From contig CAVVPN010000012.1 of assembly GCA_963750165.1 (NCBI GenBank), positions 1,254,142-1,318,141 on the forward strand: 64,000 nucleotides of DNA, in the 5' to 3' direction. The first letter of the stretch is position 1. Every line of letters starts with the position of its first letter. A program made the position numbers and the translations under genes. Positions 3,350-56,730 of the stretch are shown here, piece by piece. This stretch comes from an uncultured Gemmataceae bacterium (lineage in GTDB: Bacteria > Planctomycetota > Planctomycetia > Gemmatales > Gemmataceae). The notes beneath the pieces are model-generated. The model was given only the letters and a program-made list of their open reading frames with translations. It had not been told where the DNA came from and did no database searches.

Positions 3350-3421
3350 CCTCCCGTAACTCAGCGGTAGAGTCTCGGTCTTATAAGCCGATGGTCGCTG
3401 GTTCGAGTCCAGCCGGGAGGA
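3350..3421 (+). tRNA. tRNA-Ile (anticodon UAU)
   Basis: Cloverleaf: acceptor CCTCCCG/CGGGAGG, D arm ACTC/GAGT, anticodon stem TCGGT/GCCGA with loop CT-TAT-AA (3382-3384), T arm GCTGG-TTCGAGT-CCAGC, discriminator A; CCA not encoded. Confidence 0.92.
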
Positions 3422-3456
3422 CTGGCGGATACCGCCGCGCCCTCCCGGCCGCGGCG

Positions 3457-45851: not shown

Positions 45852-47168
45852 ATGAATCAACAACGTCATGTGCAAGGTGTCGTCGGTCTGCTGCTCGGGC
45901 TGACGCTGGCGTGGCCGGCCGTCGGCGGCCCGGGCGGCGGCCAGAAAAAGGACCAGCCCCCGAAGCAGAAGCCGGACCTGCGCACCGGCATTGCGGTGTG
46001 TCAGTCGCCGACCGGCACACTGATCGCCGCCTACGGGCCGGGGCCGAACAGTCTCGTCGTGCGCGGCAAGGGTGTGCTGTTCCCGGACGACCTGATGCTG
46101 GCGCTGCCGGGCTACCGTGCCGAGGTGGAGACGCTCAAGGCGGAGGCGCGGCTGGCGCTGGTGGGCAACGTTCAGGTGTCGGCCACGCCGGTGCGCGAGA
46201 GCGCTGTCCGGCTGCACAAAAGTGCCGGCGTGCCCCTGGATTTCACGCTGGACCGCGGCCGGGTGTTCGTCCGGGCCCACCAGGCCAAGGAACCGGTGCG
46301 CGTCCGCGTGCGCGCGTTGAAGGAGGTGCTGGAACTGGAGCTGGAGCCGGGCGCGGAGGTGGCGCTGGAGCGCTTCAGTCGCTGGCTGCCGGGGGTGCCG
46401 TTCCTGGCGAAACCGAAGAAGGGCCACGAGCCGGTGACCGAGGTCCACCTGTTGCTGCTCAAGGGCCGGATCAAGGCGAAGCTGAACGACGACCAGGGTG
46501 AGCAGACGTTCCAGGGGCGGATGCTGTATCAGTGGAACAGCGACCGCGGCGTGGTCGGGCCGATCGCCTTGAAGAAGGTGCCCGACTGGGCCGCGGACAA
46601 GCCGGAGCCACTCGCCAAGGACGTGCAGGCGGCGCTGGAGAAGTTGACCAGGGCGCTCTCCAAGAAAGAGCCGGCCACGGTCATCGAGGAGAACCTGGGC
46701 TCCAGCGACGCGGCCACGCGCGCGTTGATGGTGGCCTGGGCGGAGGCCATCGACCAGCCGGGCCGCGTCTGGGAAGCACTGAACGACAGCAAACACGCGG
46801 ACGCGCGGGCGGCGGCGGTCCTGAGCCTGCGTCACTGGATCGGCCGCGGCACCGCCAACGACGTGGCGCTGTATCGGCTGCTGCTGAACAGGAAGTTGAA
46901 GCCGGCGCACGCCGAGATCGTCATGCAGCTGCTGCACGGCTTCACGGACGCGGATCGGGCGCGGCCCGAGACGTATGAGGCGCTGATCGGCTACCTGGAT
47001 CACGACCAGCTGGCGATCCGCGCGTTGTCGCACTGGCATCTGGTGCGGCTGGTGCCGAAGGGCGGCGACATCGCATACGACGCCGGCGCCGCCCAGCGCG
47101 CCGCCGGCGTGGCGGCGTGGCGCAAACTGGTGCCGGCGGGACAGCTGCCCGCAGCAGAGAAAAAGTGA
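45852..47168 (+). CDS. Hypothetical exported protein with helical C-terminal half
   Basis: Signal peptide; GAGGAG RBS; long intact ORF. Confidence 0.65.
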   Translation: MNQQRHVQGVVGLLLGLTLAWPAVGGPGGGQKKDQPPKQKPDLRTGIAVCQSPTGTLIAAYGPGPNSLVVRGKGVLFPDDLMLALPGYRAEVETLKAEARLALVGNVQVSATPVRESAVRLHKSAGVPLDFTLDRGRVFVRAHQAKEPVRVRVRALKEVLELELEPGAEVALERFSRWLPGVPFLAKPKKGHEPVTEVHLLLLKGRIKAKLNDDQGEQTFQGRMLYQWNSDRGVVGPIALKKVPDWAADKPEPLAKDVQAALEKLTRALSKKEPATVIEENLGSSDAATRALMVAWAEAIDQPGRVWEALNDSKHADARAAAVLSLRHWIGRGTANDVALYRLLLNRKLKPAHAEIVMQLLHGFTDADRARPETYEALIGYLDHDQLAIRALSHWHLVRLVPKGGDIAYDAGAAQRAAGVAAWRKLVPAGQLPAAEKK

Positions 47169-47344
47169 GCACCAGGGAAGGCGTGACCGGGTGGCCGGGC
47201 GGCAGGAGATACCCTCGTTCCCAAACCGGAGTTCGGAGCCAAATTCCTCCCTGCCGCAGAGGGTTCTCGGGACATTCTAAAGATTTCCGAGGTGGCTATT
47301 CTTTTCCCTGGCGCACTTCTTGCTTTCCGGTTCCGGGGATGTTC

Positions 47345-47385
47345 CGCTCTCCCGCAAGCGCTGGGCCAGCGCTTGCGGGAGAGCG
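47345..47385. repeat. Perfect 20-bp inverted repeat before attI-like copy 1
   Basis: cgctctcccgcaagcgctgg-g-ccagcgcttgcgggagagcg. Confidence 0.85.
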
Positions 47386-47444
47386 TAAAACCTGAAAAGT
47401 GATTTTTGTTAGGGCGCGCGGCGCCCCAAATCACCTGGTTCGGG
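47384..47444 (+). other. attI-like integron site, copy 1
   Basis: cgtaaaacctgaaa...tgttagggcgcgc...gccccaaat-cacctg-GTTCGGG; direct repeat of 47593..47654. Confidence 0.6.
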
Positions 47445-47523
47445 CGCCCAGACAGCGCCGGCCGGTTCGGTGGGTGTCGGCTTGCCCTCTCCGGGCATTT
47501 CCGATAAAAAAAGTGCGCGCTTA

Positions 47524-47552
47524 TTGACTTTCGAGATTCGACCGATTACGCT
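47524..47552 (+). promoter_or_regulatory. Sigma70-type promoter (Pc-like) facing the cassettes
   Basis: TTGACT-17 bp-TACGCT. Confidence 0.65.
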
Positions 47553-47592
47553 CACCCGCGGGCGCTCCGCTCCGCGGGGGCTTGCTGGTGAA

Positions 47593-47654
47593 CGTAAAAC
47601 CTGAAACAGTAACCTTGTTAGGGCGCGCTGCGCGCCCTAATCACCTGGTTCGTG
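47593..47654 (+). other. attI-like integron site, copy 2 (crossover G/TTCGTG at 47648/47649)
   Basis: GCCCTAAT-CACCTG-GTTCGTG resembles the attI1 simple site; GTTCGTG is the exact complement of the downstream R'' box CACGAAC. Confidence 0.7.
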
Positions 47655-47675
47655 AGGGGAGCGGGGGGGCGTCGC

Positions 47676-48293
47676 ATGGGCAACAAGGCGTGGCTGACAA
47701 CGGCGGCTACGCGGCAGACCTACCCCAGCCTCCAAGAACCGGCTTACAACGCCGCCCGGCATTCCGTTGCCTGCTGCGATTGGGGTATCCCGCTGCTCTG
47801 GCTCCCACTGTTCCGGCCGTCGGACCTGCTCGTCGAGAGCGTGACCGTCGAGTGCGGCAAGACGTATCGTGACCCTGCGCCCGTAGTGGACACCCCAAGG
47901 GCGTTGGAAAGGCTGGCAGGAGCCGTGGCCCGGCTCGATGCGTTGTTCCGGGAGCAGGGCTCGGTCGCTCGGTACGCAGCCATGCTCCGTGAGGCAATCG
48001 CATCGACTGCCCGGCCCTTCGTCACCTTGGAAGCGGCGGCGCTGGCCGGGGCGGGCGCGCCAGAGGAGTTCTATCGAAACCTGGAGCGGGCATTGGCCTA
48101 CTTGGATCAGCCGGATAGCTACGAGGGGCGGCATGAGTTGCTCTACTTGACGCCTACAGTCAGCGAGCCAGAGATGCCATTCCCGAACCCCGAGGAAGTG
48201 GGGGAGGAGAGTGACATCGAGGGGATGGAGATGCTTCGGTTTCTGCTTGGCGAACGGTGGGAGCGACCTGTGCCCTGGGAACCGATGCGGTGA
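47676..48293 (+). CDS. Integron cassette hypothetical protein
   Basis: Single ORF between the attI-like site and an attC half-site. Confidence 0.7.
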   Translation: MGNKAWLTTAATRQTYPSLQEPAYNAARHSVACCDWGIPLLWLPLFRPSDLLVESVTVECGKTYRDPAPVVDTPRALERLAGAVARLDALFREQGSVARYAAMLREAIASTARPFVTLEAAALAGAGAPEEFYRNLERALAYLDQPDSYEGRHELLYLTPTVSEPEMPFPNPEEVGEESDIEGMEMLRFLLGERWERPVPWEPMR

Positions 48294-48304
48294 GGAGCGT
48301 CTGG

Positions 48305-48329
48305 CACGAACAAGCCGCTACAGCGGACG
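48305..48329 (+). other. attC left half (R''/L''), truncated
   Basis: CACGAAC-aagcc-GCTACAGC-ggacg, 11 bp after the cassette stop; right arm absent. Confidence 0.65.
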
Positions 48330-48363
48330 ACCCCCACACCGGAAGAAAAAGGAAGAAAAAGAG

Positions 48364-48638
48364 TGCCATGTGCCAATGAGATGACGCGGTATTTACGGAC
48401 GGTGTACGCCACCGCCCATTGACGGCTTCATCAAGGAGTCGCGGAGTAGCATTTGCAGTGCCACGAACCAGCCTCTCTCGTTGGTTTGATCACCGTCTCG
48501 CCATACTGGTATATCAGGGGAGTGACCCCACGGTGCCGTATCAGGCGTTGGTGATCCGAGAGAGCGCAAGCTTTTCCTAGGGTTCACCCCTTGGGGACAA
48601 AAGGCGTTCTCGGCTCGCGATCCCGCTCCGGCGGAGGT
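48364..48638 (-). ncRNA. Putative bridge/seek RNA region of the IS110 element
   Basis: About 275-bp structured non-coding region 3' of the transposase, with two 8/9 matches to the reconstructed circle junction. Confidence 0.6.
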
Positions 48639-50204
48639 CTACTCCCCTGACGCTGCTGATTGTACCGCGCCGACCCCCAGGCGCGCCAACACGATCGGCA
48701 GGATGTCCCCCAGCAACTGGGGGCCACGCCGATGACCGTCCTGGATCTTTTGCAACTCCTCGGCCAACGGCCTGGCCTCGGCGGCATGTTCGCGCGACGG
48801 GATTTGCCCGATGGCCGCTTGCAGGTCGCGCAGCACCTCGGCCATGCCCGTGTCGTGGTCGCGGTGGAAGGCCGTCAGCTTGTCGAGGATGTAATGGCGA
48901 CCCTGGATGCTGGGGTGGCGAAAGACCTGGCGGCCGGCCACCATCTGGAAGGCGATGCGGCAGAAGCGCAGCGCCACCTTGACGCGCGTGTGCCGCGGGT
49001 CCTTGCCCTGTGCCGCCCACTGCGTCGCCAACACCCCGAAGTGGTGGTTGCAGACGATCAGGTTGTCGGCGATGCCGAGGATGGCGGCGCGGAGGGAACG
49101 GTTGCAGTTGCGGACCAGCGGGCCGTTGGCTTTGTCCACTTGGTCACTCTGATAACGGGACGGTCGCAGGCCGGCGCGGCCGGTGATGGCCTTGGCGTTG
49201 GCGTAGTGTTCGATCGGCCCCATCTCGCCGGCGAAGTCGGCGGCGCTGACGACGTTGACGCCGGGGAAGGACAGCAGCAGCACGTAGGGCGTCTGCACCA
49301 GCCGGCCGGCGATGTCGCGTTCCAGGGCCAGAATTTCCTGGGTTTTTTGCTGGCGATCGTGGTAGTAAGGCCAGGGCAATGCGGCGGTGCTGCTCGGCGG
49401 CGACATCGCCCGGCGCGGCCTGGTCGGCCCAGTCGAGGACCGTTTGCACGGTGCGTTGCTGGAAGCGGATGCCGGCCTGACGCAGGGAGTGACAGAGGGT
49501 TGTCAATCCGGCCTCGCGCAGTTGGTCGGCGGTCGGGAAGTGGCGGAGCAAGTGCCAGGGGACGGGACTCTCCCAGAGCTTGTCGAAGCAGGCGGCGAAC
49601 CCGGGCAAGGCGGCTTCGAGGTGGTCGCGGATCTGGCAGTTGAGGGCGGCGCCTTTGCGGACGAGGTCGCGGCGTTGGCGGATGAGCAGGAGCAAGGAGG
49701 TCCAGGCCTCGTCGCGGGTGGCTTCGAGCAAGGCGCAGCCGGTGACGGTGGCGCGATGAATGGCGGCCAGGTCGGTGTCGTCGGTCTTGTTGCCGGGATC
49801 GACGGGTTGGCGATACTGCTTGGTGACGAAGGGATGGAGGATGCGGGTCTCGAAGCCGGCGGCGGCGAAGGTGCGTTGCACGATGCGGTGATAGCGGCCG
49901 GTGCGTTCGATGGCGACGAGGCCGTCGCGGAGCTGGTGCTCGGCGAAAGCTTGGCGGACCTGGGCGACGGCCGCGTCGAGGTCGGGGCGGTTGTGGGCGA
50001 CGGTCGTGGGTGGCATGCAGGACGCGGCCGTAGAAGTCGGCGAGGAGGAACTTGGAGCGTGCCTTGGCGCAGTCGAAGCAGACGATGCCGAAGTGTTCGG
50101 GCCCGACCCGCTGGACGCGGGGATGGAGCACGCCGTGGGGCTTGCCGAGGGAGGGTGCCGGACGACGGGACGAGGGACGGTTTGTGGGTACGAGAAGTGG
50201 CCAT
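48639..50204 (-). CDS. IS110 DEDD recombinase/transposase (several frameshifts)
   Basis: FGIVCFDCAK (D), IERTG (E), KTDDTD (DD), SFPGV, GLRPSRYQS (Ser). Confidence 0.88.
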
Positions 50205-50320
50205 GAGACCTGCCTCCGGTAAAAGAGAGAGGGCTCATCTCATTCTGGCAGCTGGCTCGTCGGAATGGGTTATTTCTTTGCTAAAACCCACATACCAGGG
50301 GACGCGGACATTTTTCTTGA

Positions 50321-50410
50321 CCCGAACCAGTCGTTGCACGTGACGGGCCATCTACGGTCAATCTAATAATATTTAGTCGAGCGGCCCGCACGTGAACTGA
50401 GTTGTTCGCC
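50321..50410 (+). other. Complete attC site (90 bp)
   Basis: R'' CCCGAAC, 5-bp spacer, L'' GTT[G]CACG, TG[A]CGGGCC/GGCCCGCA stem, L' CGTGAAC, 6-bp spacer, R' GTTCGCC; two extrahelical bases. Confidence 0.85.
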
Positions 50411-50429
50411 AGCTTGGGAGGGGTCCGTC

Positions 50430-50721
50430 GTGCCGAGCGATGTCCAAACCGTCTGTGAGGCGATCGCTCGTCAACGAAAGTATGGCCACCTTACATGCGC
50501 GGTTGATGACGGGAGCGCGGCCGTCGATCCGCGGGGTTGCCGCGTAGTTCTGGATGAGTTTGTTGGGACCTTTGGATTCAAGGGACTTGCTGACGGGTGG
50601 ATCGAACTCAGCATCCAGGCCGCCAAGACACTCGTGCGCGAAATCTTACTCAAGGATTTAGCTTACCGCATCGCCATGATGTCAGAAGAAGAGGCGGCCC
50701 TGCTCACCGAACGCTTTTTTG
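50430..50721 (+). pseudogene. Second cassette ORF, 3'-truncated by ISL3
   Basis: GGAGG plus GTG start just after attC R'; ORF runs into the ISL3 terminal repeat. Confidence 0.65.
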
Positions 50722-52181
50722 GGTTCTTCCGTTTTTAGGTGCAAGCGCCTGAGAAAATGGCCCGGAAGCCCGCCACCAGTTCCCGAATGTGGGCGATGGT
50801 CTGCCGCACCAGATCCTTGCCTCGGTTTAGGTCCAGGATCAACCGGCTCCACAGACTGTCCGCGGACTTCAGCCCGTAGGCACGCTTGACAATCACGCGC
50901 GCCTTGTTGTTGATCCCCTCCACTGGCCCACTCGTCTGCCGGCCCTCGAAGTAGTTCAGGATCTCGTCTTGCCAGGTCTCGAAGGTCACGATGAACTTCT
51001 CCATCGCCGGGAACTCCTCCAGGATGTCCAGCCACACCCCGGTCAGCCACCGTAGCGCCTGCCGCCGGTCCGTGGCCGTGTCGAAGATCTTCTGGAAGCG
51101 CACGCGGATCTCGTACAGCCGCCGCAGCCGGGGCAACTGCTCAAACAAGGCCTCCAGCTTCGCTTGCTCTGCCTTGGTCAGGTCCTTGGGGTTGCGGCGG
51201 AACTCCCACATCAACGAGCGAAATTCCTTCCGTTGCGCCTTCGTGAGCTTCTGCTTGTGGCCCCGCGTGATTTTTTTTCCGCGCCTGGTCCACGACCTCG
51301 TTGAACTTCTTGGCGACGTGGAAGCGGTCGATGACCGCCTGGGCGTTGGGCAGCAAGCCCCGACAAGCGGCGTGGAACGCCGGCCCCATGTCGGCCCGGT
51401 AGGTATGCACCTGCAGGCGCTGCGCCGCGGACAACTTCTCCAGGCACTGCTGCGCCGCCGCCGCGTCACGGCCTGCGGTCACCGCCAGCACTTCGGGCCG
51501 GTCGGGGTTGGTCAGGTCGGTCAGGATCGTCACGTAGAGCTTGTGCCGCTTCTTCAGGCTCAACTCGTCAATGCCCACGTCCTGGATCACGCGCTGGGGG
51601 TCGATCGTCTTGGCCTGGGTGTCGGCCAACTGGTTGCGGACGATCAGGCCGACCGTCTCCGCCGAGATGCCCAGGCGGCGGGCCACCTCCTCCTCGTTAC
51701 TGCCGATCAGCGCCCGCAAGACGTGCTGCTCGAAGCGGTAGGTGTAGCTCGTGTCCCGGCGCTTGAAGGGCGGGATCAGGTGTTGTCGGTGATGGCAGTG
51801 GGGGCAGCGGTGGAAAACCGGTTGGTAGATCCAGAAGCTCGGTTGGCCCCAGAGTTCCAGGTCGCGGACGACTTGCACCGTCTCCTTGAACTCCAGGTGC
51901 GCGTCCTCCTCGCGGCGGCAGCGGTCGCAGCGACAGCGGTTGGGCAAGGGCCAGGAGACTTCAAAGCCGTGGCCGTCGCCGTGGCGCTCGTAAGCCACGA
52001 TGGTGACGCCTTCCGGGAGATCCACGTCGATAGTGATGGTGGCCATGACCGTCCCTGACGAGCAAGCATCGAGAACCCCAGGGCCGGCCGACGCACGGCA
52101 CCTATCCAGAAATGTAAGCCCCGCACGCCGCCCAGAAAAAGCTCAAAAATCCAGGCACTCGCACTTTACCCCGGAAGAACC
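50722..52181 (-). mobile_element. ISL3-family insertion sequence
   Basis: Imperfect ~30-bp TIRs ggttcttccg...gtgcaagcgcctg / ggttcttccg...gtgcgagtgcctg. Confidence 0.85.
50735..52046 (-). CDS. ISL3 transposase, -1 shift at an A8 tract (51271-51278)
   Basis: Zn finger CDRC/CPHC, VGIDE, ADMG, IDRFHV, TSGPVEGINNK..KRAYG. Confidence 0.88.
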
Positions 52182-52577: not shown

Positions 52578-52909
52578 TGTAAATAGATCGGGAGGGTTGA
52601 ATGACAACTGGAGCCAGATCGCGCAAGCTACTCAAGCCCGAAGAAGTACTGGCGCTCAATCCGCGCGTCGCCATCACGTTCACGCCGGGCTATCGGCCCA
52701 TCCTGACCCGCACGGTGCGCTGGTTCGAGGAACCGGGCCTCTTCCGGCGCTCGTTCCTTGGCAGATTCACGGCGTCATGTAAGGCGCTGTTCAGGGCGTT
52801 TGTGTTCATGGTTCTGGGACTGCTCGCTGCCTACGTGGCCTCGGCGGTCGCATTGGAGCGGGAGCGATACCATCCGCCGGAACACCCGGCATTTCAGCAG
52901 TGGAGGTGA
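52578..52909 (+). pseudogene. Probable C-terminal remnant of a TraG/VirD4-type coupling protein
   Basis: WSQIARKLLKPEEVLAL..AITF..G.RPI resembles T4CP C-termini; 5' part removed by the IS. Confidence 0.4.
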
Positions 52910-52912
52910 GTG

Positions 52913-53194
52913 ATGCAGGACAGGAGTTGGGTGGAGAGAGTGAAGGACCACTTGACCGAGCGTGTCATCCCCGAGGTCGGGGCTGAAATGAAACGGCTCG
53001 GCGTGCAAGGCCAGATGGAACTGGCGAATGCGATGTGGAACGGCAGCGCCTTCGTCCCCTACGGACCAGGACAATACACCCCATCCGGGAACGAGCAAGG
53101 CGTCCACGGCCCGCAGGAGAACCCGCAGCAACAGACTCAGGGCGATCCTGAGTTGCCCCAGCAACAGCAAGAGCGGGGAGGGAGGTCACTCTGA
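52913..53194 (+). CDS. Hypothetical protein (integrative element)
   Basis: GGAGG RBS; Gln-rich tail. Confidence 0.5.
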   Translation: MQDRSWVERVKDHLTERVIPEVGAEMKRLGVQGQMELANAMWNGSAFVPYGPGQYTPSGNEQGVHGPQENPQQQTQGDPELPQQQQERGGRSL

Positions 53195-53312
53195 TGTTGG
53201 AGGGTTTCGTTTTTATCGTGTGCTGCGCCGCCCTCGGAGTCCTGATCGGGACGACCAGCTGGGGCCAGCAGGCAATCGCCTGGTTGCGCAACCGGAAAGG
53301 GGAACAGCCGTG

Positions 53313-53465
53313 ATGTTCGCATTCACCGACGGATGCTCGTGGTTCGGACCCGCCCTGTTGGTGTTCGCCATCTGGTGGTCGCTCAACTGGCGGAAATTTT
53401 TGAACAAGGACAACGGCGGGAAGGCGGCGCGGACGGCCGTCCGCTGGTGGCTGGGCAGGAAGTAG
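53313..53465 (+). CDS. Small membrane hypothetical protein
   Basis: RBS and a hydrophobic segment. Confidence 0.4.
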   Translation: MFAFTDGCSWFGPALLVFAIWWSLNWRKFLNKDNGGKAARTAVRWWLGRK

Positions 53466-53522
53466 AAGACCAGGCGGGGAGGGGCGGGCAACGCCCCTCC
53501 CCTTCACTCAGGAGACGAAACG

Positions 53523-54149
53523 ATGGCATGGCTTTCAGAATTCTTCGCGGGGCTGTTCGGGTTGGAGGCTCCTGGCGGCACGCAAGACGATTCCGAGGAG
53601 GACGAACTCCCGGAACTACCGGAGGAACTCGCCGACGCAATCTGGGACATCCCTCAGCGCTACGGCCAGACCTACCAAGCGGCGGACAGCCTGGATAAGG
53701 CCCTGCGGCTGATGGACCCCGAGCTTATCATGGATACCGCCATTGAAAACACGAAAGCGGTGTGCCTCTTGCTCATTGACGAATGGGACATCCCCGCCAG
53801 CAAGCTGATGAACTACTTGAAGCCCCTCGCCGAGGCGGTCGAGGAATACGCCCCGCTGTACGGGCAGTTCTGCGCGGAGTACGCGGGCATGTGGGAAGAG
53901 CTGCCTGCGAAGGCCCGGCGGTGGGGGGCAGCGGGTGCACAGTTGGGGCGAGCATTCGGCATGTGGGGCGAGGTCGCCGGGGCGCTTGGGGCGGCGTGGC
54001 TCGCTGGCGGCAACAGCGGGGAGCAAATGGAAGCGGCGTTCCGGCAACTGGAGTCCGCCTTCATCGACGTCGGCTGCCAGTGGGACGAATGCTCGGAGCA
54101 AATCCACGAACGCTGCGCGCGCTTGCTCGCCCGAAACGCTTCGAGGTGA
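53523..54149 (+). CDS. Hypothetical acidic protein with glycine-zipper-like segment
   Basis: AGGAG RBS; GAAGAQLGRAFG..G..AGALGAAW. Confidence 0.6.
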   Translation: MAWLSEFFAGLFGLEAPGGTQDDSEEDELPELPEELADAIWDIPQRYGQTYQAADSLDKALRLMDPELIMDTAIENTKAVCLLLIDEWDIPASKLMNYLKPLAEAVEEYAPLYGQFCAEYAGMWEELPAKARRWGAAGAQLGRAFGMWGEVAGALGAAWLAGGNSGEQMEAAFRQLESAFIDVGCQWDECSEQIHERCARLLARNASR

Positions 54150-54152
54150 CCC

Positions 54153-54347
54153 GTGAACGAACACCTGATCCATGACACGTCATGGTCGGCGGCGTACAGC
54201 ATGGTCGAGGTGGTGGCCCCGTGCCTGCGGGAGGAGGAGCAGGCCGAGGCCTTCCACGCATTCTACCGGCGCGTGCGAGCGGCCCTGGAAGCCTACGCGA
54301 TCATGAGCGAGCGGGGATGGCGGTGCGCGAACCCGTCGAGGAACTGA
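54153..54347 (+). CDS. Small hypothetical protein
   Basis: Operonic spacing and GAGG RBS. Confidence 0.5.
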   Translation: MNEHLIHDTSWSAAYSMVEVVAPCLREEEQAEAFHAFYRRVRAALEAYAIMSERGWRCANPSRN

Positions 54348-54350
54348 GTC

Positions 54351-54758
54351 ATGAAACACCGGGACTGGATCGGCAAAGCCGCCCCGGCCCTCACGCCGGA
54401 GCAGCGGGCCGCTGTCGTTCGCGAGGCTTTCGAGGCCATCGTGGCTGTCGGGTTCATGAAGTGGAAGGCCGAGGAACTGATGGGCTACGGCTACGAAGCC
54501 GGCGAGCAGGACCGCGAGCATTACGCTCGCCTGTACGAAAAGGACCATTTCCGCGCATTCGCTGCAAGGGCCGCGGGGGCGACCGACGCACGGCTGCTGG
54601 AGACGCGGGCCTACTGGATCGGCAAGGCGAAGACGATGGACCTTGGCGCCTGGCTGGAGGTTCAGAGCAAGGGGCGGGGCGGAGACCCGTTTTACGAAAC
54701 GGTGGCGCGCGAGGTGGAAGCCCGGCAGCTCATCCGGGCCGGCGGCCGGGAACACTGA
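54351..54758 (+). CDS. Hypothetical protein
   Basis: GAGG RBS, operonic, typical codon pattern. Confidence 0.55.
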   Translation: MKHRDWIGKAAPALTPEQRAAVVREAFEAIVAVGFMKWKAEELMGYGYEAGEQDREHYARLYEKDHFRAFAARAAGATDARLLETRAYWIGKAKTMDLGAWLEVQSKGRGGDPFYETVAREVEARQLIRAGGREH

Positions 54759-54767
54759 GGTGCGCCT

Positions 54768-54917
54768 ATGACTGTGAAAGATGCGGCCGCCCGCCTCGGC
54801 GTGTCGGCCTACACGGTCTACGGGCTGCGTACGCCCACGCAGTTGCGCCATTCGCGCGTGGACCTGGGGCGGGGCAAAATCGCCAGCAGTGAGGAGATGA
54901 TCGCCGAGTACCTGTAA
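54768..54917 (+). pseudogene. Degenerate excisionase-like HTH gene
   Basis: MTVKDAAARLGVSAYTVYGL, then shifted LRHSRV..GRGKI. Confidence 0.55.
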
Positions 54918-54938
54918 CGGAAGAGATCGAGGTGGGGC

Positions 54939-55175
54939 ATGTTATCCGTCAAGCAGGCGGCCGAGCGGGCAGGGGTGTCGGTCAGCCTGATCTATGCGTG
55001 GTGTGCAGCTGGGGCACTGAAGCATTCCCGCTTCGGTCGTCCCGGAAGACGCGGCACTATTCGGGTCGAGGAAAACGATCTGGAAGCGTTCCTGAAGGAT
55101 TGTCAGCTGGAGGTACGGCTTCCTGCCGCACCTCCGCAGCCACTACGGCACATCACACTCCCGCAGCCTTCTTAG
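54939..55175 (+). CDS. Excisionase-like HTH protein
   Basis: MLSVKQAAERAGVSVSLIYAWC...IRVEENDLEAFL, convergent with the integrase. Confidence 0.75.
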   Translation: MLSVKQAAERAGVSVSLIYAWCAAGALKHSRFGRPGRRGTIRVEENDLEAFLKDCQLEVRLPAAPPQPLRHITLPQPS

Positions 55176-56220
55176 CGGCCTCGCGCATGTGGTCCACCCT
55201 GCCGGCGAGGTGCGCGTAATGCTGGCTCACCATGCTGGTGTCCACGTGTCCCATCAACTCGGCGACCTGGGCGATACCCACGCCGTTGACAAGGGCCTGC
55301 GTCGCGAACGAGTGCCGCATGGTGTAGCTGATGACGCCTGCCATGTGCGGCAGTTTGGCCCGCAGGTTCCGGAAGCGGCAGCGGACGCTGTTGCGGGTGT
55401 AGCCGCGCTTGCTGCGCGGGCCGCGGAACAGCGGGCCTTCCGGATATTTCGCCATCAGGTTGCGGGACAATTCGACCATCGCCGGCGTCAGGTAGATGAC
55501 GCGTGGCCGGCCGGTTCGTTTGGCGGTCTTGTGTTCTTTGAAGATCCACACGCCCAGTTCCAGGTTGACGTGGGCCGCGGTGAGCTTGCGGACCTCTCCG
55601 GGCCGGGCGCCGGTTTCGACCATCGCGAGGACGAAGTCACGGAACGATTGGTCCTTGATCGTGCCCAGGATCTCCTCCCGCTCCGCAGGCGACAGAATGC
55701 GGTCGCGGTGCCGCTGTGGGGGTTTCGCGACTTTCTTCACCGGGTTGAAGGAAAGCAGGCCCTCGGCCTCGGCCCAGTTGAACACGCGCTTGACGGCGAT
55801 GATGGCATTGCGGCGGCAGCCGTTCCATCCGGGGTGGGCGTCGAGCCAGCGGGTGACGTGCAGCGGCTTGAGATCGGCGGCGAGCAGTGTGCCGAACATC
55901 TCGCAGAAGTCCTGAAGGAATTCCCGGTAGCCGCGGTAGGTGTCCGGGGTGCGGTGCTTCTCGGAGTAGTCGAGGAACAGCTCGCACACCGTTGCAACGG
56001 GGAGCTTTTCCGCCTCGGGGAGCTTGCCAGCGCCCGAGGCCATGACGCGGAAGTAGGCAATCTCGATTTCTTCCGGCGGCTTGGGTGGCGGATCACCCCG
56101 TTTCCGTTTCCGGGGCGGAGGAAGGTGGGCCGGGTGATGCCCGAGGAACTCTTGCCGGCCGCCGACCTCGACGAACCAGGCATTCTTGGAAGCACGATAC
56201 CAGGGATGATGCGGACGCAT
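55153..56220 (-). CDS. Tyrosine integrase (phage/ICE type)
   Basis: TGARPGE (R), HKT (K), YTMRH, LMGH, QHY; sits next to a tRNA att site. Confidence 0.92.
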   Translation of the reverse strand: MRPHHPWYRASKNAWFVEVGGRQEFLGHHPAHLPPPRKRKRGDPPPKPPEEIEIAYFRVMASGAGKLPEAEKLPVATVCELFLDYSEKHRTPDTYRGYREFLQDFCEMFGTLLAADLKPLHVTRWLDAHPGWNGCRRNAIIAVKRVFNWAEAEGLLSFNPVKKVAKPPQRHRDRILSPAEREEILGTIKDQSFRDFVLAMVETGARPGEVRKLTAAHVNLELGVWIFKEHKTAKRTGRPRVIYLTPAMVELSRNLMAKYPEGPLFRGPRSKRGYTRNSVRCRFRNLRAKLPHMAGVISYTMRHSFATQALVNGVGIAQVAELMGHVDTSMVSQHYAHLAGRVDHMREAAKKAAGV

Positions 56221-56352
56221 GAGCCAAAGCCTCCCATGACTGAAGCCACGGGTAAGCCGGAAGGCTTGCTCAAGCCTGCCCTGCCTGTCACAACCAGGTG
56301 GGGCAGGTGCGTTTCCTGCCTAGTTTCCTGCCCTCATCGTAGGGGGCAAAGT

Positions 56353-56389
56353 CAAGGGCCGCCGCAACTTCTTATTGCGACGGCCCTTG
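56353..56389 (-). terminator. Hairpin just downstream of the tRNA 3' fragment
   Basis: caagggccgccgcaa-cttctta-ttgcgacggcccttg. Confidence 0.55.
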
Positions 56390-56394
56390 CGATG

Positions 56395-56441
56395 TCGGGC
56401 CGAGAGGATTCGAACCTCCGACCTCCTGAACCCCATTCAGG
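56395..56441 (-). pseudogene. 3' half of tRNA-Pro(GGG), att-site duplication
   Basis: CCTGA-ATGGGGT-TCAGG-AGGTC-GGAGG-TTCGAAT-CCTCT-CGGCCCG-A; no D arm or 5' acceptor strand. Confidence 0.85.
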
Positions 56442-56730
56442 AAGCATCGCAACCCAACCCGTTAAGTGACAAGGTAGATACGCCGATCTCGTCTCTCGCT
56501 TGCACCACTGCTTGCACCGGCAAGGCGGAAACCGCTCAACCTGTCACCGTGGAAGCGCTGGCCGCGGCGCTGCTGACTCTCTCGGCAGACGACCGGGCGC
56601 GGCTGGTGGCCCTGCTCCTGAGCCAGTCACCGGACAAGCCGAAGGGGTAACGCCCTCTGGTAGAACGGCACCAGGGGCGACACTCGCCCCTGGTGCGAAG
56701 ATCGGGCACGAATGAAAGCGAGTTACCGCA

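Follow-up and report, generated by a model that had tools for sequence, protein, structure and literature searches.

The 64,000-nucleotide stretch analyzed here (the window; C12:1254142-1318141 in the 9.6 Mb, 12-contig and 93% complete assembly of an uncultured Gemmataceae bacterium) contains, at positions 47231 to 47654, a tandem of two short units, each with a predicted promoter and a site resembling attI, the attachment site of integrons. A gene cassette and cassette recombination sites (attC) follow, and no integron integrase gene (intI) adjoins them. The units were found to be copies of a module that is dispersed over the genome, and we consider it likely that they are combinations of a predicted cassette promoter (Pc) and attI, which lie apart from intI and are served in trans by a distant integrase (IntI). 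The cassette array beside intI on contig C4 is referred to below as the main array.

The initial annotation of the locus described two direct repeats, and these proved to be real. The repeats starting at 47384 and 47593 are 86.9% identical over 61 columns (50 of 59 aligned bases), and each is the 3' part of a larger module of approx. 190-210 bp. The true module starts are at 47231 (unit 1) and 47465 (unit 2), upstream of the direct repeats. From 5' to 3', the module consists of a σ70-like promoter, a hairpin overlapping the -10 box with its foot, a short inverted repeat, and an attI-like core, in which 6 nt separate an L-box-like heptamer from a GTT box. By convention, the boxes in attC and attI are written as RYYYAAC and GTTRRRY. 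Unit 1, a type A module on the forward strand, is bounded by a 5' GTT and by the R box (47231..47444). It has a predicted promoter at 47320..47348 (-35 box TTGCTT at 47320, 17 nt, -10 box TCCGCT at 47343), a 19-pair hairpin at 47342..47388 with its foot on the -10 box, and a core at 47409..47444 with the inverted repeat, a variant L box (47425-47431), 6 nt and the R box GTTCGGG (47438-47444). Position 2 of its -10 box is C instead of the A found in the other 18 copies compared, a change that likely weakens the predicted promoter. A 27-nt stretch from R box 1 to the start of unit 2 (47438..47464) has no counterpart in a similar tandem on contig C11, as judged by pairwise alignment. Unit 2, a type B module on the same strand (47465..47654, again from 5' GTT to R box), has a predicted Pc at 47524..47552 (-35 box TTGACT at 47524, 17 nt, -10 box TACGCT at 47547), an imperfect hairpin of 21 pairs according to folding (47546..47597), and a core at 47618..47654 with the inverted repeat, the L box CCCTAAT (47635-47641), 6 nt and the R box GTTCGTG (47648-47654). 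The predicted crossover of this core lies between 47648 and 47649. Both cores have the layout of an attI simple site, i.e., an L box, 5-6 nt and a GTT R box.

Folding of the promoter-hairpin-core region confirmed the hairpin annotated in each unit, with z scores of -5.65 and -3.73 and none of 200 shuffled sequences folding as well in either case. A consensus promoter and terminator scan found no terminator site at the units; by this criterion, neither hairpin acts as an intrinsic terminator. An Rfam search of the module gave no family at gathering score and listed only three microRNA hairpin models, far below it. The long hairpin was also considered as a cryptic attC, which was dropped as it has no flanking R boxes.

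Upstream of the tandem lies a gene for a 438-aa protein (45852..47168, forward strand) without a Pfam or NCBIfam family and without a tie to integrons. It had been annotated as an unrelated exported-protein gene; the first part holds, and the signal peptide was judged by eye only. Directly 3' of unit 1 there is unit 2 and no gene. The initial description of a stand-alone, duplicated capture site is correct as regards the absence of intI, but only for unit 2 could a cassette of its own be shown. The open reading frame (ORF) of this first cassette (47676..48293, forward strand) encodes 205 aa, with 17 other homologues at 50-80% identity and no Pfam or NCBIfam family. It is followed by the left half of an attC (48305..48337, forward strand; R'' box CACGAAC, 5 nt, L''), whose right half is missing. 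This half site does not fold (z 0.89) and has no two-half hairpin; the R'' box noted after the first ORF holds, a whole attC at that place does not.

A transposon end, split by an element of the IS110 family of insertion sequences (IS), occupies 48338..50320 and separates the half attC from a whole one. The IS110-family element (about 48366-50297, left boundary inferred) is frameshifted and carries PF01548 and PF02371, with the transposase in two reverse-strand ORFs at 49144-50238 and 48639-49406. The whole attC (50321..50410, forward strand) belongs to a family common in the main array and has a rule score of 32 (top class), a profile score of 56 bits and a fold z of -2.71. With its bottom-strand hairpin, R and L boxes and extrahelical bases, it is the textbook site it was first taken for. 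At C12:1093227-1093132, a half attC, a transposon end and a whole attC occur in the same order without the IS; the site at 50321 therefore probably served as the attC of the first cassette until the IS was inserted. A further cassette-like ORF (50430..50738, forward strand, 102 aa) comes next and is interrupted by an ISL3-family IS (50722..52181, reverse strand, PF01610) with terminal inverted repeats and a 99.8% identical copy at C11:491679-493142, and the visible array ends there. The window has one whole and one half attC; sister loci with 3-4 attC qualify as an integrase-free attC cluster (CALIN).

The boxes on either side of the first cassette match each other. R box 2 (GTTCGTG, 47648) is the exact complement of the R'' box CACGAAC at 48305, as had been noted from the sequence, and this heptamer is found in only 1 of the 96 attC left-half motifs in the genome. 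R box 1 complements the R'' box at 50321 too, yet that heptamer is common (19 of 96 left halves). Among neighbouring attC of the main array, the R' of the first is the complement of the R'' that comes next in 27 of 38 pairs, compared with a mean of 7.6 and a maximum of 16 pairs in the shuffled control. For the modules, the R box is the complement of the first R'' at five of six testable sites, and the sixth matches in 6 of 7 bases. Unit 2 and its closest copy, at C11:455430-455593, are identical in 157 of 164 aligned bases (96%), apart from one hairpin deletion. They diverge immediately after GTTCG, which contains the G/TT crossover, and their first cassettes are unrelated; the R box of each matches the R'' of its own first cassette. 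The upstream type A partners of these two type B copies are only 137/200 identical. The R/R'' matches and the divergence at the crossover suggest that copies were active once they had been made. Satellite or solo cassette loci have three blocks in common, with a length of 380-870 nt and an identity of 95-97%, and satellite attC sites match those of the main array. The blocks shared with the main array are about 1.4-1.6 kb long, multi-copy, and IS-like by size and copy number.

The module was then found elsewhere in the genome with a search profile built from 11 copies. It retrieved 12 full copies at E<1e-16, representing 10 loci, and about 10 weaker or partial copies, with matches on five contigs. 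The pair in the window is thus not unique in this genome and is one part of a dispersed family, which the initial annotation had not seen. The anatomy of the family is fixed: a motif of promoter plus hairpin foot had eight matches genome-wide with a spacer of 17 nt and none with spacers of 15, 16, 18 or 19 nt. The spacer sequence varies among copies while its length is constant. Likewise, the hairpin arms differ in sequence and keep their pairing, and 11 of 13 fold better than all of 100 shuffled versions, the other two being shortened. Sites of attC were detected with our own rule, a profile of 48 main-array sites, and BLAST, and were counted as linked when on the same strand, at 12 bits or more, and within 3.2 kb. 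In this way, a downstream attC was linked to 9 of the 12 strong copies (7 of 10 loci) and to none of 520 random stretches. Further solo copies with cassettes, which the initial annotation had proposed to look for, do exist. Overall, 15 of 26 sites have a downstream attC, or 13 of 24 when two sites of a second type, located via attC clusters, are left out. Conversely, a whole or partial module lies upstream of 14 of the 32 attC clusters outside the main array, and among the 11 of these clusters that contain at least two attC this is the case for 8; both counts take in the two second-type sites and one weak match. Units and cassettes are often damaged by insertion sequences. Four near-identical diverged modules (C12:63801, C3:2669082, C3:2672862 and C3:2678133), three of them within 10 kb, lie beside transposon ends and have no attC. 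They have an upstream flank and a downstream transposon end in common and were therefore apparently copied as passengers.

The two second-type sites, at C12:348566(-) and C3:2406650(+), form a separate family of solo attI-like heads with a predicted promoter approx. 250 nt upstream. They precede arrays of four and of three or more attC, respectively, and their core resembles the sites after intI in a relative (G053). Six further repeats match the attC left-half motif (C11:1655711, C3:26053, C3:481615, C3:941708, C3:2870100 and C4:610288) and have no right half and no profile support.

The sole TIGR02249 match over the cut-off in the genome is an intact intI at C4:1198586-1199911 (465 bits, cut-off 265). 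This gene and its cassettes are divergently oriented, and four 20-bp direct repeats are present in its attI. The array beside it comprises about 50 cassettes, with 48 attC found by rule and 56 when profile matches are included. In the encoded IntI (441 aa), the N-terminal domain is duplicated and the C-terminus is slightly extended. A truncated copy of the 5' part of intI (98.8% identical), together with attI and a cassette, is located within the main array at C4:1189800-1190731 and has a transposon end on one side. The tandem in the window has no intI adjoining its attI, as first annotated. Within 10 kb of any unit, no IntI homology was detected except for a phage-type integrase in the window (55153-56220), a tyrosine recombinase reaching 30 bits on TIGR02249. 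A profile of the IntI C-terminus revealed no remnant in the 700 nt upstream of the 26 sites and detected the two controls (75 and 14 bits).

Among relatives, BLAST of the intergenic region of the window against 30 genomes gave no match. Similarity of the module at the sequence level reaches other genera poorly, whereas its architecture does reach them. In one relative (G255), promoter, hairpin, inverted repeat and core lie 36 nt after the stop of an intact, co-oriented intI and are followed by cassettes; the same genome has another unit behind a decayed intI end and a unit without intI. G217 has one head behind intI and a solo one that matches it in 122/133 bases, and the likeness begins near the stop codon. 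Sites of the same architecture adjoin intI in G255, G217 and G231. The first cassette behind the co-oriented intI on G255:C40 encodes a small protein resembling ribosomal protein S21 by eye.

A core pattern occurred at 43 places in 34 of 251 family genomes. This is not enriched over the reversed control, and we therefore drew conclusions only from loci whose stem, attC and intI were checked one by one. Among the 37 of 43 places inspected individually, ten adjoin intI or a piece of it (nine co-oriented, one divergent), and six are solo with an attC downstream (one of them weak) and 1.7-6.1 kb of intI-free DNA upstream. Two more have attC and upstream DNA too short to judge, one lies within an array, six have a good stem and no attC, and twelve appear to be chance matches. 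A promoter-hairpin pattern added two solo sites with cassettes. Solo heads with cassettes were thus seen in eight genomes from five genera; intI over the cut-off is present elsewhere in five of these, and none was seen in three, which are 82-89% complete. The promoter boxes in the relatives are close to consensus. A sequence model run over 150 family genomes, with 21 candidates scored per genome, found two genomes and was insensitive. Over 400 genomes of the phylum, a pattern similar to the core pattern gave ten matches with no intI, one weak attC, and three resembling the ends of rRNA genes, and we claim nothing outside the family. A strict module pattern matched 12 places in unrelated taxa across all species genomes, judged by their titles to be chance, and a second pattern gave two AT-rich chance matches in metagenomes and none in viral contigs.

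Two observations from the same searches are added here. At G124:C2:2423279 and C11:408775, module copies are followed at the R box by recombinase or transposase sequences, presumably a tyrosine-recombinase gene and the start of an IS91-like transposase, the latter labelled by motif. The ORF of a mid-array cassette is cut, at G186:C994:3366-3401, by a hairpin and attI-like core without a -35 box.

The module is accordingly a multi-copy family of fixed anatomy, linked to attC and matched to it by its R box, in surroundings free of intI, in a genome with an intact intI elsewhere and with intI-adjacent counterparts in relatives. These findings support the interpretation given in the initial annotation, in which service in trans and promoter activity are read from sequence, and extend it by tying a dispersed family to co-oriented integrons, by the broken first attC, and by the finding that a cassette can be shown for unit 2 only. 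Both conditions named in the initial annotation as refuting came out in its favour: most of the strong copies precede cassettes, and the repeat resembles intI-adjacent sites, weakly the one in the organism's own genome and in full architecture the one in G255. In our best reading, the modules would be detached Pc-attI heads of reverse-type integrons, which were amplified and loaded with cassettes. In the co-oriented layout of the relatives, the whole of Pc and attI comes after the intI stop codon, as a self-contained block of 150-200 bp; the block should therefore be detachable as one piece, and we infer that it was detached. A detached head would remain a substrate of IntI and still transcribe the cassettes inserted into it. 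Provided in trans, IntI would insert cassette circles by recombination at the core's G/TT, and the first cassettes would be transcribed from the predicted promoter with its 17-nt spacing. Because the hairpin spans the -10 box together with the predicted start, and no terminator was found, a role in tuning the promoter or as a 5' leader is likelier than termination.

Several observations weigh against this interpretation. The promoter-like boxes annotated before both repeats kept their 17-nt spacing, but the consensus scan of the window units called no promoter because the best match was 8/12 and the scan needs 9. Three of the 12 strong copies have no attC within 3.2 kb downstream, and the satellites have no cassette body in common with the main array at 90% and above. 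The attI beside intI on C4 was not picked up by genome-wide searches with the module profile. Its last 42 profile positions do score 12.4 bits, which none of 100 shuffles reached. Since this attI is of another type and only its core scores, recognition of the modules by the C4 IntI is not assured, and a further intI could be missing from the assembly given its completeness. Moreover, when the core profile was applied to 11 intI-adjacent sites of relatives, four scored and seven gave no match.

The same data were considered under other explanations. The modules could be inactive relics of whole co-oriented integrons, which captured cassettes, later lost their own intI, and receive no service in trans. 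G255 has the same unit behind an intact intI, behind a decayed end of the gene and without intI, a series that fits such a history and makes gene loss one real route to solo units, which also counts against the main reading. The IS damage to many units and cassettes and the lack of a cassette common to the main array point in the same direction. Nevertheless, about ten clean and independent deletions of intI would be needed, with no remnant at any of 26 sites, and neither the modules that start at the R box of another module nor the 96% identical copies with different first cassettes are explained. We regard this history as unlikely. A gene-less promoter cassette, ending 3' in a preferred secondary site of attG-like nature or in an attC that has collapsed and not in an attI, is somewhat less probable still. 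In its favour, a GTT opens modules and cassettes alike, the main array includes a promoter-only relative among its cassettes, and the hairpin-core unit in G186 lies inside an array. Both promoter cassettes and attG insertion have been published (10.1101/2023.11.21.568050; 10.1101/2022.09.11.507474). Against this, the same core lies between intI and the first cassette in relatives, and it does not have the attC fold, as it lacks both an R'' box and a long stem with extrahelical bases; moreover, the literature describes attG sites as differing from attI. The module has the GTT start of a promoter cassette and ends in an attI-like core instead of an attC of its own.

The strong hairpins, and the four near-identical diverged copies that travel with transposon ends and without attC, would be expected of an unrelated small mobile or RNA element (a miniature inverted-repeat transposable element, a REP-like element or a leader RNA) that gathers with cassettes in variable regions. 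Such an element would have no reason to be linked to attC on the same strand or to show R/R'' complementarity, no Rfam family was reached at gathering score, and the intI-adjacent copy in G255 largely refutes it; we consider it very improbable.

How the detached Pc-attI heads spread is a separate question. It is possible, at somewhat below even probability, that the promoter-attI head was itself moved by IntI as a 'platform cassette' into chromosomal GTT sites, into arrays, or into the attI of other heads. A circle of module and first cassette would then be cut by IntI and reinserted via an ordinary attC reaction at attI or at a chromosomal GTT, and such reinsertion would give GTT starts and a unit 2 at or near the docking point of unit 1. 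Similarity among nine type A copies begins at a 5' GTT (GTTC in eight, GTTT in the ninth) located 83-91 nt before the -35 box; mean pair identity is at background (0.24-0.29) before this GTT and 0.58 in the next 7 nt. In one further type A copy the GTT is 118 nt before the -35 box, and in the G124 copy 84 nt. At C11:455430 and C4:1102302, a second module begins exactly at the R box of the first. An ORF-less cassette start in the main array, C4:1158148-1158040(-), has the module promoter without hairpin or attI, and this promoter-only relative begins at an attC crossover. Three points speak against mobility of this kind. The GTT was found by searching and the copies are kin, so they represent one common boundary and not nine events. 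Unit 2 in the window begins 27 nt away from R box 1, and no empty sites were found when sought from the flanks within the genome. As a possible alternative route to tandems, exchange between two attI sites is reported to be 3-4 orders of magnitude rarer (PMC4792948).

In the remainder of the window, the region 52601-56461 contains the remains of an integrative element, with the integrase at 55153-56220, an excisionase-like gene (HTH_17), small ORFs and a tRNA-Pro at 56394-56461. No matching second copy of the tRNA-Pro end was found for this 53-56 kb island, and the idea that the tandem marks its border was rejected for that reason. ARAGORN further predicted a tRNA-Ile with anticodon TAT at 3350-3422, a type that is rare in bacteria.

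Co-oriented (reverse) integrons are reported from Treponema denticola and Blastopirellula marina (PMC6557892). As in these, the module places promoter and attI as one block before the first cassette, and in the relatives of the module the block follows the intI stop on the same strand. The present modules differ in being multi-copy, nested in tandem and without intI beside them. Clusters of attC and single attC without integrase (CALIN and SALIN) are defined by attC alone and are attributed to split or decayed integrons or to attG insertion (PMC4889954; 10.1101/2022.09.11.507474). Like them, the arrays described here are short and far from intI, and the papers allow for mobilisation of their cassettes in trans. 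According to PMC4889954, a Pc is unable to express a CALIN and most attI cannot be searched for; the present arrays, in contrast, have a predicted promoter and attI of their own. The attI1 of class 1 integrons is about 65 bp long, with L and R boxes and direct repeats (PMC4792948, PMC3146285), and the layout of L box, 5-6 nt and GTT R box is described in PMC3146285. The module has a comparable simple site, G/TT crossover and upstream accessory boxes, with the difference that its accessory box pairs with the L box as an inverted repeat. Its hairpin-foot heptamer equals DR1 of attI1 as printed in PMC3146285; as it stands approx. 100 nt upstream and is at the same time the -10 box, the match may be due to chance. 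Gene-less promoter cassettes (10.1101/2023.11.21.568050; PMC6557892) also lack an ORF, start at the crossover GTT and provide a promoter for downstream cassettes, but they end in attC and stay in arrays, whereas the module ends in an attI-like site and occurs at many chromosomal places. Action in trans on CALIN cassettes, attG insertion, reverse integrons and promoter cassettes are covered across PMC4889954, PMC6557892, PMC9668308, 10.1101/2025.06.18.660453 and others. In the literature searched, which includes few subscription journals, there was no description of multi-copy Pc-attI heads without intI.

Arrays without an integrase equal or exceed complete integrons in frequency. Since most attI escape the available tools, such arrays are usually taken for integrons that have decayed or been split, or for stray insertions (PMC4889954, PMC9668308, 10.1101/2022.09.11.507474). 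If the heads are indeed served in trans, the integron of this organism would be a distributed system with many first positions at which cassettes are captured and expressed, and many arrays counted as silent leftovers could be active. If the heads are moved by IntI as well, one integrase would both give rise to satellite integrons and act on them, as a network in which every satellite has a promoter of its own.

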